DNA of 11,858 nucleotides, taken from a virus. The notes beneath the pieces are model-generated. The model did not search any database. It was not told the DNA's origin and saw only the letters and a list, made by a program, of their open reading frames with translations. Position numbers and translations under genes: made by a program. Shown in pieces: positions 3,852 to 11,858 of the stretch. The stretch lies in UHGV virus genome UHGV-0338394, one strand, 5' to 3'. Positions within the stretch are counted from its first letter, which is position 1; every line of letters begins with the position of its first letter.

Positions 3852-4193
3852 ATGATTACTAAAAATTTCCGACTGAATGCGCTGGCGAATAAGTATGCGT
3901 CGGCACTGTATAACCACATTACCTCCACCAGCGGCGGGGACTATTTCATGGTTGATGCGGACGGCCTCGCCGTCCGTGTGGAAATCGTCAATGGAGTAAA
4001 AGGCGTTCGCAGCCTGATCGATAGCTACACACTGGCAGCCATGAAAGTGTCCTACCCGCAGTGGGAAACCGTGGGGATAGAGATTCTTGATCGTTGCGTC
4101 ACTAATGACGGATTGACTGACGTCGGGCGTGAGATATGGCAAAGCATGGTTAAAGACATGGGCGCGACCGTGGCAGGGGGCAACCATGCGTAA
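3852..4193 (+). CDS. Hypothetical protein (113 aa)
   Basis: GAGGGGG ribosome-binding site upstream of the ATG at 3852. The stop overlaps the primase start. Confidence 0.65.
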   Translation: MITKNFRLNALANKYASALYNHITSTSGGDYFMVDADGLAVRVEIVNGVKGVRSLIDSYTLAAMKVSYPQWETVGIEILDRCVTNDGLTDVGREIWQSMVKDMGATVAGGNHA

Positions 4194-6627
4194 TATCGAC
4201 CTTATCCGCGAAGTGACCAGTGCCGCCGCCGGGCGCTGGCCTTATGTGCTGGCTGGATTGTCTATCGACGTGCCTGATTCATCGCGCCGCCATTCTCCAT
4301 GCCCTGCATGTGGTGGGAAAGACCGTTTCAGATTCGACGACAACGGGCGCGGTAGCTTTATCTGCAATCAGTGTGGCGCTGGTGACGGTTTAGACCTGAT
4401 TAAGAAGGTGAACAACTGCGACACCACAGAAGCGGCGAGGCTTGCCGCTGATGTGCTGGGTATTGATTACCGGGCAGCGCAAACCGACCCGGTGGCAGCG
4501 AGCCATAGAAGAGAGCAACTGGAAGCTGACCGCCAGCAGCGTGAGCAGGAGCGCCAGAAACAGGCAGCAGAGGATGCAGAGCAGCGAAGGGCTACGTTTG
4601 CCCGTCTGTATGCCGGAATGCGCCAGAGTGCCACACAGGGCGAATCTGATTACCTGCAATCAAAAGGGCTGACCGGGTTTAAATATCCGGTAATGCCGGA
4701 TGGTTCGTTATTGCTGGAGCTGGTGGACGAATCCGGCGCAGTGGCAGCAGCGCAAACCATTACACCGCAGGGAGAGAAGCGACTCCTGACAGGTTCAGCA
4801 AAGCGCGGGGCATATCACGCCGTAAACGCGCCAGAATCGCCGCAGAGCGTTTTAATTGCCGAGGGGCTGGCGACGGCCCTTTCAGTTCACCTGATGCGCC
4901 CGGACGCGCTGGCAGTGGCAGCAATTGACGCGGGCAACCTGCTACCCGTTGCCGAAGTGATGCGCCGGATATATCCAGCCACGCAGATTATCATTGCCGC
5001 AGATAACGACCACCAGCAGGACGAACAGGCGAACACGGGCAAAGATGCCGCAGAGAAAGCCGCCTTATCCGTGGCTGGCTGGGTGGCGCTGCCGCCGACA
5101 GACTACAAAGCCGACTGGGACGACTACCGCCAGCAAAACGGGCTGGAAGTCGCTACGGCTGCGTTTAACGATTCGATGTACCAGATTCAGGGGGAAGCCG
5201 TGAAACCACAACTACAGGCCATTGCGGGCGGTAAATCCCGCCGTAAAGCCGAAGTCGGAGATATTGCACAAATGGCAGCCAGCCAGAAAGCGCGGTTGCT
5301 TTCATCTCGCTGGGATATGTTGGCGGTCAACCCTGATAGTGGCGCTGTTTACTGCTACGAATCTGGCGTATGGGAGAAGCTACCAGACAGTGAATTAGAA
5401 AGGGTTATGGTGGCAATTTTCGACGAGCACGAAGCCCACTACACCGAAAAGGGGATTAAATCGGTTGTCGCAACCATGAAGCTGCAAATACCGGTAATTG
5501 GTGAGCGGAGCGGGGATCTGATTGGTTTTGATAACGGCGTTTATGACCTCGCCACGCAGACGTTTTCCGCCCATTCGCCGGGTAACTGGCTGATGAACCA
5601 CAATGGGATCACCTACACCCCGCCAGCGCCGGGGGAAAATATTACCACCAGCGCCCCCAATTTTACCCGTTGGCTGAATCATGCAACGGCTGGCGACCAT
5701 CATAAGGCCGAGCGTATCAAAGCAGCCTTGTTTATGGTGCTGGCGAAGCGTCACGACTGGCAGCTATTCATTGAGATAACTGGCGAGGGCGGCAGTGGGA
5801 AATCCGTATTCAGCAGCATAGCAACCACGCTGGCAGGTGAACACAACACCGCCAGCGGTAGCATGATGACGCTGGACACCGCACGGGGACGGGCGCAGTT
5901 CGTAGGGAAAAGCCTGATTATTATGCCTGACCAGACCCGCTACGTTGGAGAGGGTGCGGGGATTAAAGCCATTACGGGCGGCGATCCGGTAGAGATTGAT
6001 GGGAAATATGAAAAGCAGTTCACAACCGTGATAAATGCCGTTGTTATGGCAACCAATAACGAGCCGATGACATTCACGGAGCGAAACGGGGGCATTGCCC
6101 GCCGCCGCGTGATATTCCCGTTTAATAACCCGGTATCAGACGCAGACAAAGACCCGGATTTAACCGCAAAAATCAGGCGAGAAATCCCGGTGATTATCCG
6201 CCACCTGCTAACCACCTTTGCCGACCAGAACAAAGCAAAGGCACTATTACTAGAGCAGCGCGATTCGCAGGAGGCGCTAGAGGTTAAACGCGGCACGGAT
6301 CCGGTTGTCGATATGTGTGCGGCGCTTTTTTTCATGAACGAACCCAAAGGCATGATGATGGGCGGAGGTACATGGGCAGGCCAGCCAGAGCCGAGGACGT
6401 ATCTTTATCATCTTTATCTGGCGTTTATGGAGTATCACGGTTTGGGTAAACCGCTTTCCGTCAATAAGTTTTCACGCGCCATAAAATCAGCAGCAAAAGA
6501 GTACCGAGCCAGCTACCTGACGAGAAGCATTAACGGCAGAGCGCAAACCAACGTTGGCTATAACGAGAAGGCTGAGGAGTTCATGCCCCGTGCTTACGGT
6601 GTGGAGAGCGGGCAGAGTGATGATTGA
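4186..6627 (+). CDS. P4 alpha-type DNA primase-helicase (zinc ribbon, Toprim and SF3 helicase domains), 813 aa
   Basis: Start taken at ATG 4186 (AGGGGG site at 4175-4180) rather than 4129. Zinc ribbon CPACGGKDRFRFDDNGRGSFICNQCG, Toprim acidic residues (VLIAEGLATALS and IIIAADNDHQQDE), Walker A GEGGSGKS, Walker B-like SLIIMPDQ, and SF3 motif C VVMATNNEP. Confidence 0.9.
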   Translation: MRNIDLIREVTSAAAGRWPYVLAGLSIDVPDSSRRHSPCPACGGKDRFRFDDNGRGSFICNQCGAGDGLDLIKKVNNCDTTEAARLAADVLGIDYRAAQTDPVAASHRREQLEADRQQREQERQKQAAEDAEQRRATFARLYAGMRQSATQGESDYLQSKGLTGFKYPVMPDGSLLLELVDESGAVAAAQTITPQGEKRLLTGSAKRGAYHAVNAPESPQSVLIAEGLATALSVHLMRPDALAVAAIDAGNLLPVAEVMRRIYPATQIIIAADNDHQQDEQANTGKDAAEKAALSVAGWVALPPTDYKADWDDYRQQNGLEVATAAFNDSMYQIQGEAVKPQLQAIAGGKSRRKAEVGDIAQMAASQKARLLSSRWDMLAVNPDSGAVYCYESGVWEKLPDSELERVMVAIFDEHEAHYTEKGIKSVVATMKLQIPVIGERSGDLIGFDNGVYDLATQTFSAHSPGNWLMNHNGITYTPPAPGENITTSAPNFTRWLNHATAGDHHKAERIKAALFMVLAKRHDWQLFIEITGEGGSGKSVFSSIATTLAGEHNTASGSMMTLDTARGRAQFVGKSLIIMPDQTRYVGEGAGIKAITGGDPVEIDGKYEKQFTTVINAVVMATNNEPMTFTERNGGIARRRVIFPFNNPVSDADKDPDLTAKIRREIPVIIRHLLTTFADQNKAKALLLEQRDSQEALEVKRGTDPVVDMCAALFFMNEPKGMMMGGGTWAGQPEPRTYLYHLYLAFMEYHGLGKPLSVNKFSRAIKSAAKEYRASYLTRSINGRAQTNVGYNEKAEEFMPRAYGVESGQSDD

Positions 6628-6644
6628 AACTTTTACGGCGGCAC

Positions 6645-6893
6645 TTATCCCTACTGCCCTACTAAAAACGAGACGAGGCCAGACGTAGCAAGGCTTTAAA
6701 CTAGGTAGGGATATATATTTTTATCCCTACTTATCCCTACTTATCCCTACCAAATAAAACAGGCAGCAAAATGCCGTTGAAGTGATTTAGTAGGGATAAG
6801 TAGGGTTATGTAGGGCAACAAAATTGAATGCCTACCAGTCTGAAAGCCTTGCCATTCGTGGCCTGAGCCAGTTAGTAGGGATTGGTAGGGATA
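6645..6893. repeat. Iteron array, probably the replication origin: at least ten copies of TTATCCCTAC / GTAGGGATAA in both orientations
   Basis: Direct copies at 6645-6654, 6721-6730, 6731-6740 and 6741-6750 (a head-to-tail triplet). Inverted copies at 6704-6713, 6790-6799, 6800-6809, 6810-6816, 6875-6883 and 6884-6893. An A-rich spacer lies between the clusters. The array is immediately 3' of the primase gene, as ori/crr is in P4. Confidence 0.7.
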
Positions 6894-6945
6894 TTACACC
6901 CCCAAAAAGATTCTATGGGGGGGTAGCTTATAACGAAGGTGGGCA

Positions 6946-7248
6946 ATGAATACAGAAACCAGCCAGAAAATGACCTATCAGGAGCGTGAAGCATTGAAGG
7001 GGTTTACTGACAAACGCGCATTACAGGGCGACACCCAAAGCCTGCAAATGACCTTGAGGATGATCGCCCACTGGATGAGGCAGCCAGCAGAAATTGGATT
7101 TACAGAATATGCAACACACTGGACGGCAGCACAGGCCGGACGTGATGACGGGAATCACTCGACCGCAGCAATGGCGGAGCAGTGGCCTTTAAGGGAAGAA
7201 ATGAAAATTATCCCCGGAGGTAGTGACTACATGAGGAAATATCTATGA
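6946..7248 (+). CDS. Hypothetical protein (100 aa), first gene of the four-gene accessory operon
   Basis: GAAGGTGGG ribosome-binding site. The stop overlaps the next gene's ATG (ATGA). Confidence 0.6.
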   Translation: MNTETSQKMTYQEREALKGFTDKRALQGDTQSLQMTLRMIAHWMRQPAEIGFTEYATHWTAAQAGRDDGNHSTAAMAEQWPLREEMKIIPGGSDYMRKYL

Positions 7249-7706
7249 CAGCACAAATTTCAGCATACGGGCGGCTGGTGGCAGATCCCCAGACCCGTAC
7301 CACAGCAAACGGTACAAGCATGGCAATGGGCCGGTTAGCGGTGGCACTGCCCTGCCATGCAGCAGAGGGCGGAGAGGTTACTTTCTGGCTGGGCGTGGTG
7401 GCATTCGGCAAACAGGCCGACGCACTGGCAGGACACGTTAAAGGCGATTTAGTCAGTGTTGCCGGAGCGATGCAGATCAATCAGTGGACGGGCAAGGATG
7501 GCGGTACACAGCAAGGTTATCAGGTAGTAGCCGACAGCGTGATCAGCGCCAGAACGGTACGCCCCGGCGGGAAGCGGGCCGAATCAGTCAAAGCAAGCGG
7601 AGCCAGCAGGGGCCACACAACACAATCCGCGCCGGGATGGGAGTTATATAATACCCCTGATGATTTTGACCAACGCCCACCATTCGACGATGAAACGCCA
7701 TTCTGA
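7245..7706 (+). CDS. Single-stranded DNA-binding (SSB) family protein with an acidic C-terminal tail, 153 aa
   Basis: The OB-fold core aligns by eye with E. coli SSB ([15 protein letters not shown] against [38 protein letters not shown] against [33 protein letters not shown] against RKWTDQSGQ). The C-terminus FDDETPF resembles the SSB tail DFDDDIPF. Confidence 0.85.
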   Translation: [153 protein letters not shown]

Positions 7707-7716
7707 GAGGGAAGAT

Positions 7717-8361
7717 ATGAGTACGCAACCCATCATTATTGAGTTCGGCAGCTATCGCTGGCCCAGACATCTTGCAATACATGAAGCAGGTCATGCGATA
7801 GCCGCATGGTTGTTCGGCATACAGGAGGTAGAAATTGCGTTATCGGGTAATAACCGAGTGGCAAAAACCTACCTTAGAGGAGATGTTGATGAATGTGGAG
7901 CTGTAGCGGTATGGCAGCACGGCAACTATCCACGGAATGTGGCTGAGGTTAAGTCTTACAACCTCTCGAATGATGACACCAGGTTACGTCTGATAGACCA
8001 GGTATGCCGGGATATGGTTATCTCTCTAGCTGGTATCGTCGCGCAATCACGCTATACGGGGGATGATATTAACGCACTGATGGAAACGTCCGGGAAAGCA
8101 GACATGAAAAATGTTCGTGATTTATCAGAGGTATACCGGGTGGCTGGTGGAGAGGATGCTGATATACAGAGAATATCCCTTTCCCGTGCTGAGGCGCTGA
8201 TTGCCCTGAAATGGTGGGATGTTATCGCGCTGGCGAAAATACTGGAGAACCGTAACCATATGCCTGCCAGAAACTTCCAGCGCATTATGGGTGATATTGA
8301 CAAGCCTGTACCAAAGCCTATGACGCTGGCTGAACTGGATGAATTGGTGGGTGAAGAATGA
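7717..8361 (+). CDS. Stand-alone HExxH zinc metallopeptidase, FtsH (M41)-like motif HEAGHAI, no AAA+ module, 214 aa
   Basis: GAGGG ribosome-binding site 5 nt before the ATG at 7717. RHLAIHEAGHAIAAWLFG matches the FtsH active site TAYHEAGHAI. The downstream LAGIVAQSRYTGDDINALMETSGKAD resembles the M41 region carrying the third zinc ligand. No Walker motifs are present. Confidence 0.65.
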   Translation: MSTQPIIIEFGSYRWPRHLAIHEAGHAIAAWLFGIQEVEIALSGNNRVAKTYLRGDVDECGAVAVWQHGNYPRNVAEVKSYNLSNDDTRLRLIDQVCRDMVISLAGIVAQSRYTGDDINALMETSGKADMKNVRDLSEVYRVAGGEDADIQRISLSRAEALIALKWWDVIALAKILENRNHMPARNFQRIMGDIDKPVPKPMTLAELDELVGEE

Positions 8362-8708
8362 AGCCATACATTCTGGCAGCCGTCCTGATCTCATCGGCAC
8401 CGGCACTATCTGCTATCCATTGTGGGGGCTTTACCATACAGCCAGACCGTTATCGGACAACGATTAACGGCGATGTGGTTCATATTGTTGATGCGCAATT
8501 TTACGGCGCACCGCGAGACTTTAGCCAGGCCGCCATAAAGTTATTGCCGGATGCCATTACCACTACCGATAGGCAATACCGACTGGAGACGCAGGGAGGC
8601 AATGCCTTGCTTGAGTTGATGACCAGAGAAAACCCGCCACGTGTGCTTAATCGTGAGCGCTGCGATGCCGGGTTAACAAGATTCGGTTGGTACACTTCTG
8701 CGCCGTGA
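8358..8708 (+). CDS. Predicted secreted/periplasmic protein with an N-terminal signal peptide, 116 aa
   Basis: ATGA overlap with the peptidase gene. N-terminus MKPYILAAVLISSAPALSA has the form of a Sec signal peptide with an Ala-x-Ala cleavage site. Confidence 0.6.
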   Translation: MKPYILAAVLISSAPALSAIHCGGFTIQPDRYRTTINGDVVHIVDAQFYGAPRDFSQAAIKLLPDAITTTDRQYRLETQGGNALLELMTRENPPRVLNRERCDAGLTRFGWYTSAP

Positions 8709-8892
8709 TGTTCGTTCCGAGCGCAGCCTAAAATCAACGGCGTGACGCGGGCGATTCGCACCACAACCACACAGGGCGTCATAGAACGGGATAGACTTCT
8801 GCGACAATTTGCATTCGCCGCCAATATAGCAAGCCGTCCACATCAAGCAATAAACTATCACCGGGAGGGGGTAGTCAAATCTCTACAGCCCT

Positions 8893-8926
8893 GACTGTCC
8901 GGGACTGCCCGCCCCATCGTTTTTTT
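8893..8926 (+). terminator. Possible weak terminator after the four-gene operon
   Basis: GC-rich segment GTCCGGGACTGCCCGCCCC followed by a 7-T run (8920-8926). The stem is imperfect, and the T-run could instead pair with the downstream A-run. Confidence 0.25.
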
Positions 8927-8986
8927 ATACCCGCAAAAAATGAAATTTAATCCGGGCGTGTTTCATCCTTCCAGAGGGTATGACGT

Positions 8987-9172
8987 ATGACACCACGCGA
9001 AATAGCCTTATTGACCATCGCCAAACTTGAGCACGGAGGCCACCAGCTTACACAGGCAGATCAACGGGAGATAGAACGCTCAGTTAATGCCGATATAGCC
9101 CGGCGCGACAGGTTCCGCGAAATGATGCGAGCACCTGCCTACCAGTGGAAGAAGCCAGCGCCGCGCAGGTAG
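8987..9172 (+). CDS. Small hypothetical protein (61 aa)
   Basis: AGAGGG ribosome-binding site 8 nt upstream of the ATG. Charged, helical-looking sequence. Could be spurious. Confidence 0.4.
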   Translation: MTPREIALLTIAKLEHGGHQLTQADQREIERSVNADIARRDRFREMMRAPAYQWKKPAPRR

Positions 9173-9229
9173 ATATGGGATTATTCCACATGTAACTTAT
9201 GCGTATTAAGCAAATTTCCTTTATTCACC

Positions 9230-9259
9230 TTTACAGAATTGTGAGTACGTCAGTATCGT
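9230..9259 (+). promoter_or_regulatory. Candidate sigma70 promoter for the PRiA4_ORF3-like gene
   Basis: TTTACA at 9230-9235, an 18-bp spacer, and TATCGT at 9254-9259, in an AT-rich intergenic region. AGGA ribosome-binding site at 9284-9287 before the ATG at 9293. Confidence 0.3.
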
Positions 9260-9292
9260 TATCCTTCCGATTCGCATTTATTCAGGATTTGC

Positions 9293-9835
9293 ATGTACCA
9301 GCTAAAGATAACCATCCGAGACAGCAAACCACCTATATGGCGGCGTGTGCTGGTTCCAGAGCAAATCCCCTTTAGTAAACTTCATGCCGTGATCCAGTTA
9401 GCTTTTGGCTGGAATGACGAACACCTGTATATGTTCGAGAAAGGGCGTAAAGGTGATCCAGGTAGCGAGTATCACGTATGGGGTGAGGATGAAAGCATGG
9501 GTAACGCGGCAATCACGCCACTATGGGCGGCGCTCCAGAATGAGGGTGACAAGCTGGTTTATACGTATGACTTTGGCGACTGGTGGGATTGCGTCATTGT
9601 GCTGGAGAAGCAAACACACGATACGAGTAATCAGCCCATTAGCTGCCTGCGTGGGAAAGGCACCACCCCGGCGGAAAACTCAGGCGGCTTGCATGGTTAC
9701 AATGAATTGCTATTACAGGCCAGAGAGTCTGATAATCCTGAGCAGGCCGAGATCCACAATTTCCTGATGCTGGATATTGAACGCCGGGTTTACGACCTGA
9801 GCCGCATCAACGACAGATTGCAGGCTATTAACTGA
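9293..9835 (+). CDS. PRiA4_ORF3-like protein (plasmid pRiA4b ORF-3 family), 180 aa
   Basis: N-terminal signature LKITIRDSKPPIWRRVLVPEQIPFSKLHAVIQLAFGWNDEHLYMF matches my recollection of the family's PpIWRR...LH..IQ.aFgW..HLh.F pattern. Assigned from memory. Confidence 0.75.
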   Translation: MYQLKITIRDSKPPIWRRVLVPEQIPFSKLHAVIQLAFGWNDEHLYMFEKGRKGDPGSEYHVWGEDESMGNAAITPLWAALQNEGDKLVYTYDFGDWWDCVIVLEKQTHDTSNQPISCLRGKGTTPAENSGGLHGYNELLLQARESDNPEQAEIHNFLMLDIERRVYDLSRINDRLQAIN

Positions 9836-10187
9836 CCCGCATGTATTCACCTGATATTGCGTTATCAGCGCCGCCAGTATCGCGCATAACAGCGCACTGA
9901 CCTGGTAAACCGTAGCGCACGACCGTTGCGTTAGTTTCACCGCCGCGCCGTATCTGGCGCGATTCATACACTATCACCCGCTCAAGCAACCCACCAGCAA
10001 CCATGCTTTCCAGTGTGCGCCGGGTTGATTCGATCTGGTGGCGCTTATCGAACGACACCATGCCATGAAGCAGGTAGGCCACACCCGACACATCGAACGG
10101 CGGCGCACCAATCTCACCAGTCACCCATTCGAGGTTATCCGGTTCAAAGTAGCTAAGTATCTCTTTTTTGCGGCTGGTCATTCTCAT
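9828..10187 (-). CDS. Hypothetical protein, possibly a winged-helix DNA-binding protein (119 aa), convergent with and overlapping the PRiA4_ORF3-like gene
   Basis: Minus-strand ORF whose 3' end overlaps the 3' end of 9293-9835 by 8 nt. An AAGGAA ribosome-binding site lies upstream on the minus strand. The segment RRTLESMVAGGLLERV is reminiscent of a winged-helix recognition region, a weak inference. Confidence 0.55.
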   Translation of the reverse strand: MRMTSRKKEILSYFEPDNLEWVTGEIGAPPFDVSGVAYLLHGMVSFDKRHQIESTRRTLESMVAGGLLERVIVYESRQIRRGGETNATVVRYGLPGQCAVMRDTGGADNAISGEYMRVS

Positions 10188-10585: not shown

Positions 10586-10628
10586 ACAGATTTACTTTCT
10601 TTGCAATCGATATCACATGGAGTGGGCA

Positions 10629-11453
10629 ATGAACGAACATCATCAACCTTTTGAAGAAATACGGCATTATGGCACTGAAGGGCAAGAATTTTGGTCAGCT
10701 AGAGAATTGGCACCGTTACTGGATTATCGGGACTGGCGCAATTTTCAAAAGGTACTGGCCCGCGCGACTCAAGCGTGCGAAGCCAGCAATCAAGCTGCAT
10801 CTGACCATTTCGTTGAAACCACCAAAATGGTTGTATTAGGTTCAGGGGCTCAACGAGAACTTGAAGATGTTCATCTCTCCCGCTATGCCTGTTACCTGGT
10901 AGTACAAAACGGCGACCCTGCGAAACCGGTTATTGCGGCAGGGCAAACTTATTTTGCTATCCAGACCCGACGGCAGGAGCTGGCTGACGATGAAGCTTTC
11001 AGGCAACTTCGTGAAGACGAAAAGCGTCTTTTTCTGAGAAATGAATTGAAAGAACATAACAAACAATTGGTTGAGGCAGCGCAGCAAGCTGGGGGAGCGA
11101 CAGCTATCGATTTCGCCATATTTCAGAATCATGGTTACCGGGGGCTGTATGGTGGATTAGATCAGAAAGCTATTCATCAGCGGAAGGGGCTGAAAAAGAA
11201 TCAGAAGATCCTGGATCATATGGGTTCAACAGAACTGGCGGCTAATCTCTTTCGAGCTACCCAAACAGAAGAAAAACTCAAGCGGGATGGCGTGAATTCA
11301 AAACAGCAAGCAAACACCACACACTTTGACGTGGGTCGCAAGGTGAGGCAAACCATTCAGGAACTTGGCGGAACCATGCCTGAGGAGTTGCCGACCCCGC
11401 AGGTCAGCATCAAGCAGTTGGAAAACAGTGTAAAAATTACAGAGAAGAAATAG
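10629..11453 (+). CDS. dinD: DNA damage-inducible protein D (274 aa)
   Basis: Translation beginning MNEHHQPFEEIRHYGTEGQEFWSARELAPLLDYRDW matches my recollection of E. coli DinD. GGAG ribosome-binding site 6 nt before the ATG at 10629, which I prefer to the ORF-track start at 10617. The LexA box lies immediately upstream. Confidence 0.88.
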   Translation: MNEHHQPFEEIRHYGTEGQEFWSARELAPLLDYRDWRNFQKVLARATQACEASNQAASDHFVETTKMVVLGSGAQRELEDVHLSRYACYLVVQNGDPAKPVIAAGQTYFAIQTRRQELADDEAFRQLREDEKRLFLRNELKEHNKQLVEAAQQAGGATAIDFAIFQNHGYRGLYGGLDQKAIHQRKGLKKNQKILDHMGSTELAANLFRATQTEEKLKRDGVNSKQQANTTHFDVGRKVRQTIQELGGTMPEELPTPQVSIKQLENSVKITEKK

Positions 11454-11743
11454 CAGAAACTAAAAACTCTTTTTGTTGATTGAGACACCCGATGCGTAAG
11501 CCAAGGTCCAGGTGCAGTGAACACAATGGCTAAATATTGCACCTTTCTTTTCCCCCCTCAGTTTTAACCTATTTTTTCTTATGCATTTTCTCAGACAAGA
11601 AGTCAGAAGAATGCATCTCTGCTACAGAAAATAGCGATTTCACATAACTACAAGTTATCAATTTCCCCTCACCTTAAAAAATCTCAATCGTGACAATGCG
11701 CACAAATCGCTACCCTGCCAGACAGATTTTTAGGGAGAGAACC

Positions 11744-11858
11744 ATGCTGTTACACATTTTGTATTTGGTTGGCATTACTGCCGAAGCCATGACGGGGGCG
11801 CTGGCGGCCGGACGACGGCGCATGGATACATTTGGCGTAATTATTATTGCGACCGCCA
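11744..11858 (+). CDS. yicG: UPF0126 inner-membrane protein YicG, 5' partial (first 38 codons; continues past the window end)
   Basis: GGGAGAG ribosome-binding site then the ATG at 11744. Hydrophobic N-terminus MLLHILYLVGITAEAMTGALAAGRRRMDTFGVIIIATA is consistent with the UPF0126 (YicG/YadS) family and with the dinD-yicG order in E. coli. Confidence 0.8.
   Translation, partial: MLLHILYLVGITAEAMTGALAAGRRRMDTFGVIIIATA

Follow-up and report, generated by a model that had tools for sequence, protein, structure and literature searches.

The described satellites closest to the element considered here are phage-inducible chromosomal islands (PICI) and capsid-forming PICI (cf-PICI) of Enterobacteriaceae, whose genes share one direction and encode an integrase, a regulator of the AlpA type and, beside the origin, a primase-replicase (PMC6092414, PMC10085698). 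In the literature, PICI cargo is placed either beside the integrase or behind the replication module (PMC10085698). The element examined in this study agrees with this description in gene content, gene orientation and cargo position. It lies on an 11,858-nucleotide stretch of the UHGV virus genome UHGV-0338394, and this whole stretch is called the window below. Its region 6900–8930 is 100% identical to the chromosome of E. coli 2017.17.03CC (NZ_AP027829.1, locus L001), and the segment of interest, four plus-strand genes at 6946–8708, forms the part that follows the origin of a PICI-type phage satellite, which is integrated between the E. coli genes yicC and dinD. The element has the integrase, the AlpA-type regulator and, next to its origin, the primase-replicase, all in the conserved order; the AlpA assignment comes from Pfam matches of the equivalent gene in related islands. 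The element differs from described PICI in that no capsid-morphogenesis, terS or rpp-like gene was recognised among the window proteins by Pfam, PHROG or annotation. Since no packaging gene was recognised, the logic of SatelliteFinder would assign it only to "Type C" PICI (PMC10085698). Our literature search found no paper in which PICI-type satellites are described as carrying an M41-type peptidase or an SSB module.

The four genes encode a protein of 100 amino acids (aa; 6946–7248), a satellite single-stranded DNA-binding protein (SSB) of 153 aa (7245–7706), a predicted stand-alone M41 (FtsH-type) zinc metallopeptidase domain of 214 aa (7717–8361) and a predicted exported protein of 116 aa (8358–8708). 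An earlier note on this DNA had read them as one co-translated system, in which an SSB-like sensor or decoy of single-stranded DNA (ssDNA) is coupled to a zinc protease. We instead favor, with a probability of roughly 0.55, the reading that the segment is a mosaic of three independently assorting parts, namely a small gene tied to one primase type, an SSB belonging to the replication module, and a rare cargo pair formed by the peptidase and its exported partner. The anatomical decomposition into these parts is held with good confidence, and the function of the pair in phage–satellite conflict with low confidence. Genome counts carry much of the argument. Among 5426 complete E. coli genomes, the SSB gene has DNA matches in 1663 and the peptidase gene in 28; the complete four-gene cassette is present in 25, as against 75 that carry the primase allele of the window (at ≥80% coverage).

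The gene content following the origin changes from one island of this family to another. In L002 the origin is followed by the 100-aa gene, SSB, PerC and a hypothetical gene, and in L027 by the 100-aa gene, SSB, a divergent M41-like paralog and PerC. L004 carries a truncated 100-aa gene, a 57-aa open reading frame (ORF), a divergent M41-like gene and PerC, and L003 a different small ORF, then SSB, the peptidase, the exported protein and more genes. The right-hand side of the variable stretch is a conserved 68-nt junction (8863–8930, corresponding to positions 1964–2031 of the DNA search query), which lies upstream of the right-end genes. In most of the rows sampled from the 357 matching genomes of E. 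coli it is ~98.5% conserved, irrespective of the cargo. The junction marks the right boundary of the slot, and it may serve the right-end genes as a promoter or regulatory site. The earlier note had placed a variable accessory slot after the origin, and both the different genes of same-family islands and the 25 versus 75 genomes bear this out. Within this slot the peptidase and the exported protein behave as variable cargo, and a fixed position of the four genes in all relatives was not seen.

The same comparison bears on the possibility that the four genes extend the replication module in a fixed way, with the peptidase processing or turning over the primase, the SSB or a host factor for the element's own replication. 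The genes do stand directly 3′ of the origin and in the orientation of the primase, no separate promoter was detected, and M41-like genes often follow replication genes in other loci. However, the cassette is much rarer than the primase allele, sister islands carry PerC or other genes instead, M41-like genes are also found beside the integrase, far from the origin, and it is not plausible that the exported partner takes part in replication. We therefore regard a replication extension as very unlikely.

The peptidase gene also occurs without an SSB gene. A second M41-like paralog, which shares 30% identity with the window peptidase in a local BLASTP alignment and is sometimes annotated in RefSeq as "peptidase M41 family protein", is present in 53 of the E. 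coli genomes (copies at L027 4534–5172, L004 9695–10366 and L026 5001–5672), where it occupies the post-SSB slot of near-identical islands or adjoins the integrase. M41-like genes with no SSB nearby were found directly after the origin in L014, next to the integrase in L019 (Salmonella) and L026 (E. coli), and in L022–L024, the Pseudomonas/Stutzerimonas-type loci also belonging to this group. An SSB gene directly precedes the M41-like gene in Serratia, Klebsiella and L010, and stands one to three genes upstream of it in Dickeya, L015 and L016, a pattern to be expected from a slot that simply starts at the end of the replication module. A scan of genome contigs confirmed at least four M41-like loci among the matches listed, most matches being true FtsH, and a tblastn search with the peptidase found no match in the plasmid and phage collections. 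As a separate observation, the M41-like gene adjoins a katG-like gene both in L022 (Pseudomonas chlororaphis) and in L023, a record titled Leclercia tamurae; by eye, the starts of the katG-like ORFs and those of the M41-like ORFs look nearly identical in the two records, despite the different bacterial orders, and the Leclercia record may be chimeric or misassigned.

The SSB, by contrast with the peptidase, is widespread. Proteins of this type stand directly after the primase and origin both in a capsid-encoding cf-PICI and in a PICI that carries ProQ and PerC, and in the PICI and cf-PICI satellites of E. coli the gene for this SSB type is a routine component of the replication module. By its sequence it would be an ordinary member of the SSB family. 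It matches the Pfam SSB profile (PF00436) with 54.7 bits against a cut-off of 26 and phrog_44 with an E-value of 5.9e-30, and scores 50.8 against TIGR00621, slightly under the cut-off of 53.95. Its C-terminus, ...PPFDDETPF, presents the acidic tip DDETPF after a disordered linker, and the description of this product as an SSB-family protein with an oligonucleotide/oligosaccharide-binding (OB) fold and an acidic tail was correct. In a pairwise alignment with a reference sequence of E. coli SSB, the two proteins are 25% identical; W48, F54 and W81 align with W54, F60 and W88 of E. coli SSB, the equivalents of W40 and H55 are replaced, and the terminal D-x-P-F aligns with DIPF. Thus, the window protein shares with bacterial and phage SSB the match to the OB-fold profile, aromatic ssDNA contacts at three of the four classical positions, the disordered linker and the acidic P-F tip, and it differs from bacterial SSB in its low identity to the E. 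coli protein, its score below the TIGR00621 cut-off, its location on a satellite and its position directly after an iteron origin. In some islands, a remnant of the 3′ end of the SSB gene (window 7596–7720) persists without annotation downstream of other cargo, for instance at L004 10413–10568, which suggests a recombination junction at the left side of the variable slot.

Metalloproteases combined with ssDNA binding have a precedent in ArdC, and the earlier note had drawn on this analogy, and on SprT/Spartan-type proteases, in proposing the SSB-like protein as an ssDNA-binding sensor or decoy that works with the zinc protease in a new defence or anti-defence system, the flanking small genes being accessory subunits. 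Several features fit such a coupling: the SSB and peptidase genes are closely spaced (10 nt with a putative ribosome-binding site here, 8 nt in Klebsiella, overlapping called genes in Serratia), an SSB gene stands directly or within three genes upstream even of M41-like genes that are only 23–30% identical to the window peptidase, and the slot is variable, as is usual for defence and anti-defence cargo. Yet the SSB is present in far more genomes than the peptidase, and it occurs with capsid modules or with ProQ/PerC in place of the peptidase; the peptidase occurs away from any SSB in the loci named above; the 100-aa gene was found only with one primase type; and the OB fold and tip of the SSB are canonical, as they should be in a functional SSB. 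Because an SSB after the origin is standard in the replication modules of E. coli satellites, its adjacency to cargo should not be taken for functional coupling. The predicted fold of the peptidase is M41 and not that of SprT or ArdC, and no peptidase copy was found in the plasmid or phage collections. None of the four proteins, nor the three neighbouring proteins, matched PADLOC-DB v2 at E ≤ 0.01, in agreement with the statement of the earlier note that the combination is not a named defence or anti-defence system. The coupled four-gene system was not upheld, nor was the ArdC/SprT analogy, and we consider such a system unlikely. Membership in the ArdC or SprT families was rejected on the grounds that the ArdC-N ssDNA-binding domain and an SprT-like fold were both lacking.

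The first gene of the segment follows neither the SSB nor the pair. Its 100-aa product had no match in Pfam, NCBIfam or PADLOC and only a weak match to phrog_4935. Homologues fall into just 10 clusters, with 66–99% identity over most of the query, and reach a Candidatus Erwinia genome. The gene was found only in islands with the primase type of the window, namely L002, L027 and L004, in the last of which it is C-terminally truncated and accompanied by no intact SSB. Small ORFs that precede the SSB in other satellites were considered as candidate homologues and rejected, as they are not homologous. Profile and structure searches thus placed three of the four products, an SSB, a predicted M41 fold and a predicted exported β-barrel, and left the 100-aa protein without a family match.

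The tight gene packing on which the idea of a four-gene unit was built is real. All four plus-strand ORFs were confirmed, with ATGA start/stop overlaps at 7245–7248 and 8358–8361 and a 10-nt spacer, gagggaagat, between the SSB stop codon (7704–7706) and the ATG at 7717; the spacer looks like a ribosome-binding site. A longer form of the third ORF, starting at 7660, is possible, and the N-termini of homologues and the RefSeq annotation favor 7717. The SSB, the peptidase and the exported protein all have homologues of conserved length in several enterobacterial genera. Other ORFs of the window overlap in the same manner, by 1–8 nt (e.g., 2439–2648/2645–2959/2956–3219/3216–3842), and neither a sigma-70 consensus promoter nor a plus-strand terminator was found in 6600–9300. 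Taken together, these data indicate that tight packing is a property of the whole element and not a special signature of a four-gene operon. A separate four-gene operon is not demonstrated by the sequence.

The third gene was examined by profile, alignment and structure. Its product contains the motif HEAGHAI at residues 22–28 (HEAGH at 22–26), and in an alignment of 28 sequences that are 17–46% identical to it, H22, E23, H26, G106, A109, D129 and A173 are invariant; in one close homologue, H22 is replaced by Q. D129 lies within TSGKADM. We take the third zinc ligand of FtsH to be the Asp of the motif TGASND, and D129 would be its counterpart. The family assignment by profile is transitive: the window peptidase itself has no match to Pfam PF01434 at E ≤ 0.01 and falls under every Pfam M41 threshold, and 9 of its 28 relatives match Pfam Peptidase_M41, with a best E-value of 1e-13. 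In hhalign comparisons, FtsH aligns with the HExxH helix and with the helices at the C-terminus, the latter at 92.6% probability. The AlphaFold2 (AF2) model, built with 20 homologues, has a predicted local distance difference test (pLDDT) score of 72, and residues 41–68, an insertion of ~30 residues after the HExxH helix, are modelled at low confidence. A profile search of PDB sequences returned no FtsH, and Foldseek against the PDB gave weak matches (best E-value 0.06). NCBIfam, PHROG functions and PADLOC gave no assignment. No AAA Pfam match was found, and by eye no hydrophobic segment is long enough for a membrane anchor. In summary, the HExxH motif with its catalytic Glu and the predicted M41 fold are present, and the Pfam PF01434 match, the AAA+ module and the anchor are absent. 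The alignment, the AF2 fold, the hhalign result and the transitive Pfam matches support the description in the earlier note of an ATPase-less FtsH-type zinc peptidase, which we would specify as a stand-alone M41-fold domain and not an FtsH proper.

Such proteins are rare. An exhaustive profile search of 1.84 billion representative proteins recovered only 71 relatives of the peptidase, mostly stand-alone proteins of ~200 aa. Distant M41-like domains were also observed in P0071, P0074 and P0079 (loci L028–L030), where they are fused C-terminally to tail-assembly modules (phrog_32, phrog_31). The modules resemble lambda gpI or the N-terminus of J, and the fusions adjoin head-protease and capsid genes on short metagenomic contigs; they offer no more than a hint that the domain is linked to envelope-engaging phage structures.

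The fourth gene starts within the end of the third. In the alignment of its homologues, from which signal peptides were judged, the N-terminal 19 residues are variable yet hydrophobic and end at an AxA-like site before a conserved I-[HQ]-C-G. The 116-aa protein is therefore predicted to have a Sec-type signal peptide and to be exported, with a mature domain of ~97 aa, in line with the earlier recognition of a signal-peptide protein as the fourth product. C102 is invariant and C22 nearly so. The AF2 model (pLDDT 76) is an 8-stranded all-β domain, and the family comprises 17 clusters. Membership in MliC/PliC was considered for this protein and rejected, its sequence agreeing neither with the family profile nor with the inhibitory loop motifs.

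Of 13 peptidase lineages sampled, 8 encode an exported protein directly downstream of the M41-like gene, and the more recurrent partner of the peptidase is this downstream exported protein, not the SSB. Two partner types were found. The β-barrel occurs in the window and in L003, L010, L014 and L019, always with a 4-nt ATGA overlap. A lipoprotein occurs in L005 (Serratia; 10757–11827), L008 (Dickeya; 8718–9788), L015 (1968–2726) and L026 (E. coli; 5749–6807). The lipoproteins are homologous, measure 352–356 aa (partial in L015), and carry a lipobox reading LVAC, LGAC, LTGC or ISGC; a charged central segment was also noticed. Neither they nor other neighbours had a usable Pfam, PHROG or NCBIfam assignment. 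The type of partner does not agree with the peptidase tree. A single peptidase clade at 66–75% identity has β-barrel, lipoprotein and PerC neighbours, and the lipoproteins of L005 and L026 are 66% identical whereas the Serratia-type and 223-type peptidase lineages that accompany them share ~21%, a value measured on the L004 gene, which is ~92% identical in DNA to the L026 copy. This repeated re-pairing of divergent peptidases suggests that the peptidase and an envelope-exported partner form a functional module.

Under the mosaic reading, the SSB would coat ssDNA produced when the primase-helicase fires the iteron origin, and host proteins with affinity for the SSB tail would dock on its DDETPF tip. 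Genes three and four would be a rare cargo pair, composed of a soluble, ATPase-less M41 peptidase with an intact H-E-x-x-H...D site and an exported partner with an overlapping start. The partner would here be a small periplasmic β-barrel, the two conserved cysteines of which may form a disulfide. The peptidase is presumably an active zinc enzyme and, as no unfoldase is present, probably cuts only unstructured or unfolded substrates. As a working hypothesis, the pair may act at or across the cell envelope in the conflict between phage, satellite and host, for example in superinfection exclusion or in interference with a helper phage.

A stronger version of this idea is that the peptidase and its exported partner constitute an undescribed two-gene satellite system, in which an ATP-independent protease and an envelope component exclude phages or manipulate the helper. 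Such a system could, for example, cut unfolded proteins as they enter or leave the cytoplasm, and the re-pairing of divergent peptidases would in that case be the mark of a functional interface that is conserved under pressure from an arms race. We put this forward tentatively, as a possibility with the odds against it.

Two further explanations of the pair were weighed on the same evidence. In one, the peptidase and the exported protein are host-adaptation "moron" genes, with the barrel acting, for instance, as a PliC/MliC-like inhibitor of host lysozyme or of another envelope-acting enzyme. The 116-aa protein does resemble the periplasmic β-barrel inhibitors PliC and MliC in fold class, but it has no match to their sequence families, and we judge this explanation quite unlikely. 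In the other, the pair is an abortive-infection or toxin–antitoxin-like module, in which the exported protein or its precursor harms the envelope and the peptidase limits its level until a phage trigger. The ATGA overlap of both genes in four lineages would suit this arrangement, as would the small size and narrow distribution of both families on mobile elements and the faster evolution of the peptidase relative to its partner (33–35% versus 47–58% identity for the same lineage pairs). However, no PADLOC model showed similarity, the peptidase lacks an exported partner in some lineages, and no lone gene for the exported partner was seen among the examined loci; a module of this kind appears highly improbable.

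Returning to the mosaic reading and the pair at its center, several points weigh against it. In many loci an SSB is directly followed by an M41-like gene, and near-identical islands show this for both of the divergent paralog types; a functional link between SSB and peptidase may therefore exist. Five of the 13 lineages (Klebsiella, L004, L016 and the Pseudomonas/Stutzerimonas types) have no exported neighbour, and the position after the peptidase could merely collect exported "moron" genes. It is hard to see how a peptidase in the cytoplasm and a partner in the periplasm would come into contact. The AF2 models of both proteins are of moderate confidence. Neither the peptidase nor its partners have a PADLOC, PHROG-function or NCBIfam assignment. 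Finally, the gene-context comparison covers few loci, which were found via the genes under study themselves, and shared ancestry is uncorrected.

The remainder of the element conforms to a satellite with a P4-type replication module. In L001, yicC is followed by the integrase, a hypothetical gene, a helix-turn-helix (HTH) regulator, an AntA-family protein, DUF4222, an Icd-like gene, several small genes and the P4-family primase; the four genes then precede a 61-aa gene, PRiA4_ORF3 and a 119-aa gene on the opposite strand, which is followed by dinD. The primase-helicase, the presumed replication initiator (4186–6627, plus strand), contains the Pfam domains Zn_Ribbon_Prim, Toprim_3, D5_N, DUF5906 and Pox_D5, scores 111 bits against TIGR01613, over the cut-off, and is annotated accordingly in RefSeq. 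The iteron origin predicted by the earlier note just 5′ of the cassette was confirmed by repeat search at 6643–6894, where TATCCCTAC/GTAGGGATA repeats in both orientations surround an AT-rich core. Three tandem copies are spaced by 10 bp (6719–6751), inverted copies lie at 6702–6713, 6787–6819 and 6872–6894, and the search delimited repeat families D1 and D2 and inverted pairs I1–I18.

On the right side of the slot, the 61-aa ORF (8987), PRiA4_ORF3 (9293) and the 119-aa ORF on the minus strand are conserved in L001–L004 and L027. The PRiA4_ORF3-family gene (Pfam 8.3e-43) and the convergent 119-aa gene, together at window 9293–10187, were present in every examined island of the window-element family. 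The dinD gene of the window occupies 10617–11453. In L002 (strain Br_190_kylling), two adjacent dinD copies are found at the right end of the island (12674–14675), which suggests an integration that duplicates or carries a copy of dinD. On the left side, gathering-level Rfam matches on the plus strand of the window to c4-a1b1 (2005–2057), isrK (2018–2094) and C4 antisense RNA (2143–2230) fall inside the Icd-like region, downstream of the AntA-family gene, and 2005–2230 looks like a P1/P7 ImmI-type antisense control module on a satellite. Rfam gave no match within 6600–9300.

The stretch from the 3′ end of the SSB gene to the 68-nt junction is a well-bounded slot and could be mined for further cargo. 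Should a phenotype related to phages be found for the pair, satellite cargo would gain a new enzymatic class, an FtsH-type zinc protease without an unfoldase, and the pair would offer a tractable example of how a protease domain free of an unfoldase finds its substrates. FtsH is a housekeeping protein that combines its peptidase with an AAA+ ATPase, a transmembrane anchor and a periplasmic domain, whereas the window peptidase is encoded by a satellite, lacks all three and begins ~20 residues before the HExxH motif. With ArdC, SprT and Spartan the cassette has in common only the general idea of an ssDNA-binding function adjoining an HExxH protease on a mobile element. Set against these known systems, what is new in this locus is a satellite-borne, ATPase-less peptidase of predicted M41 fold with interchangeable exported partners.

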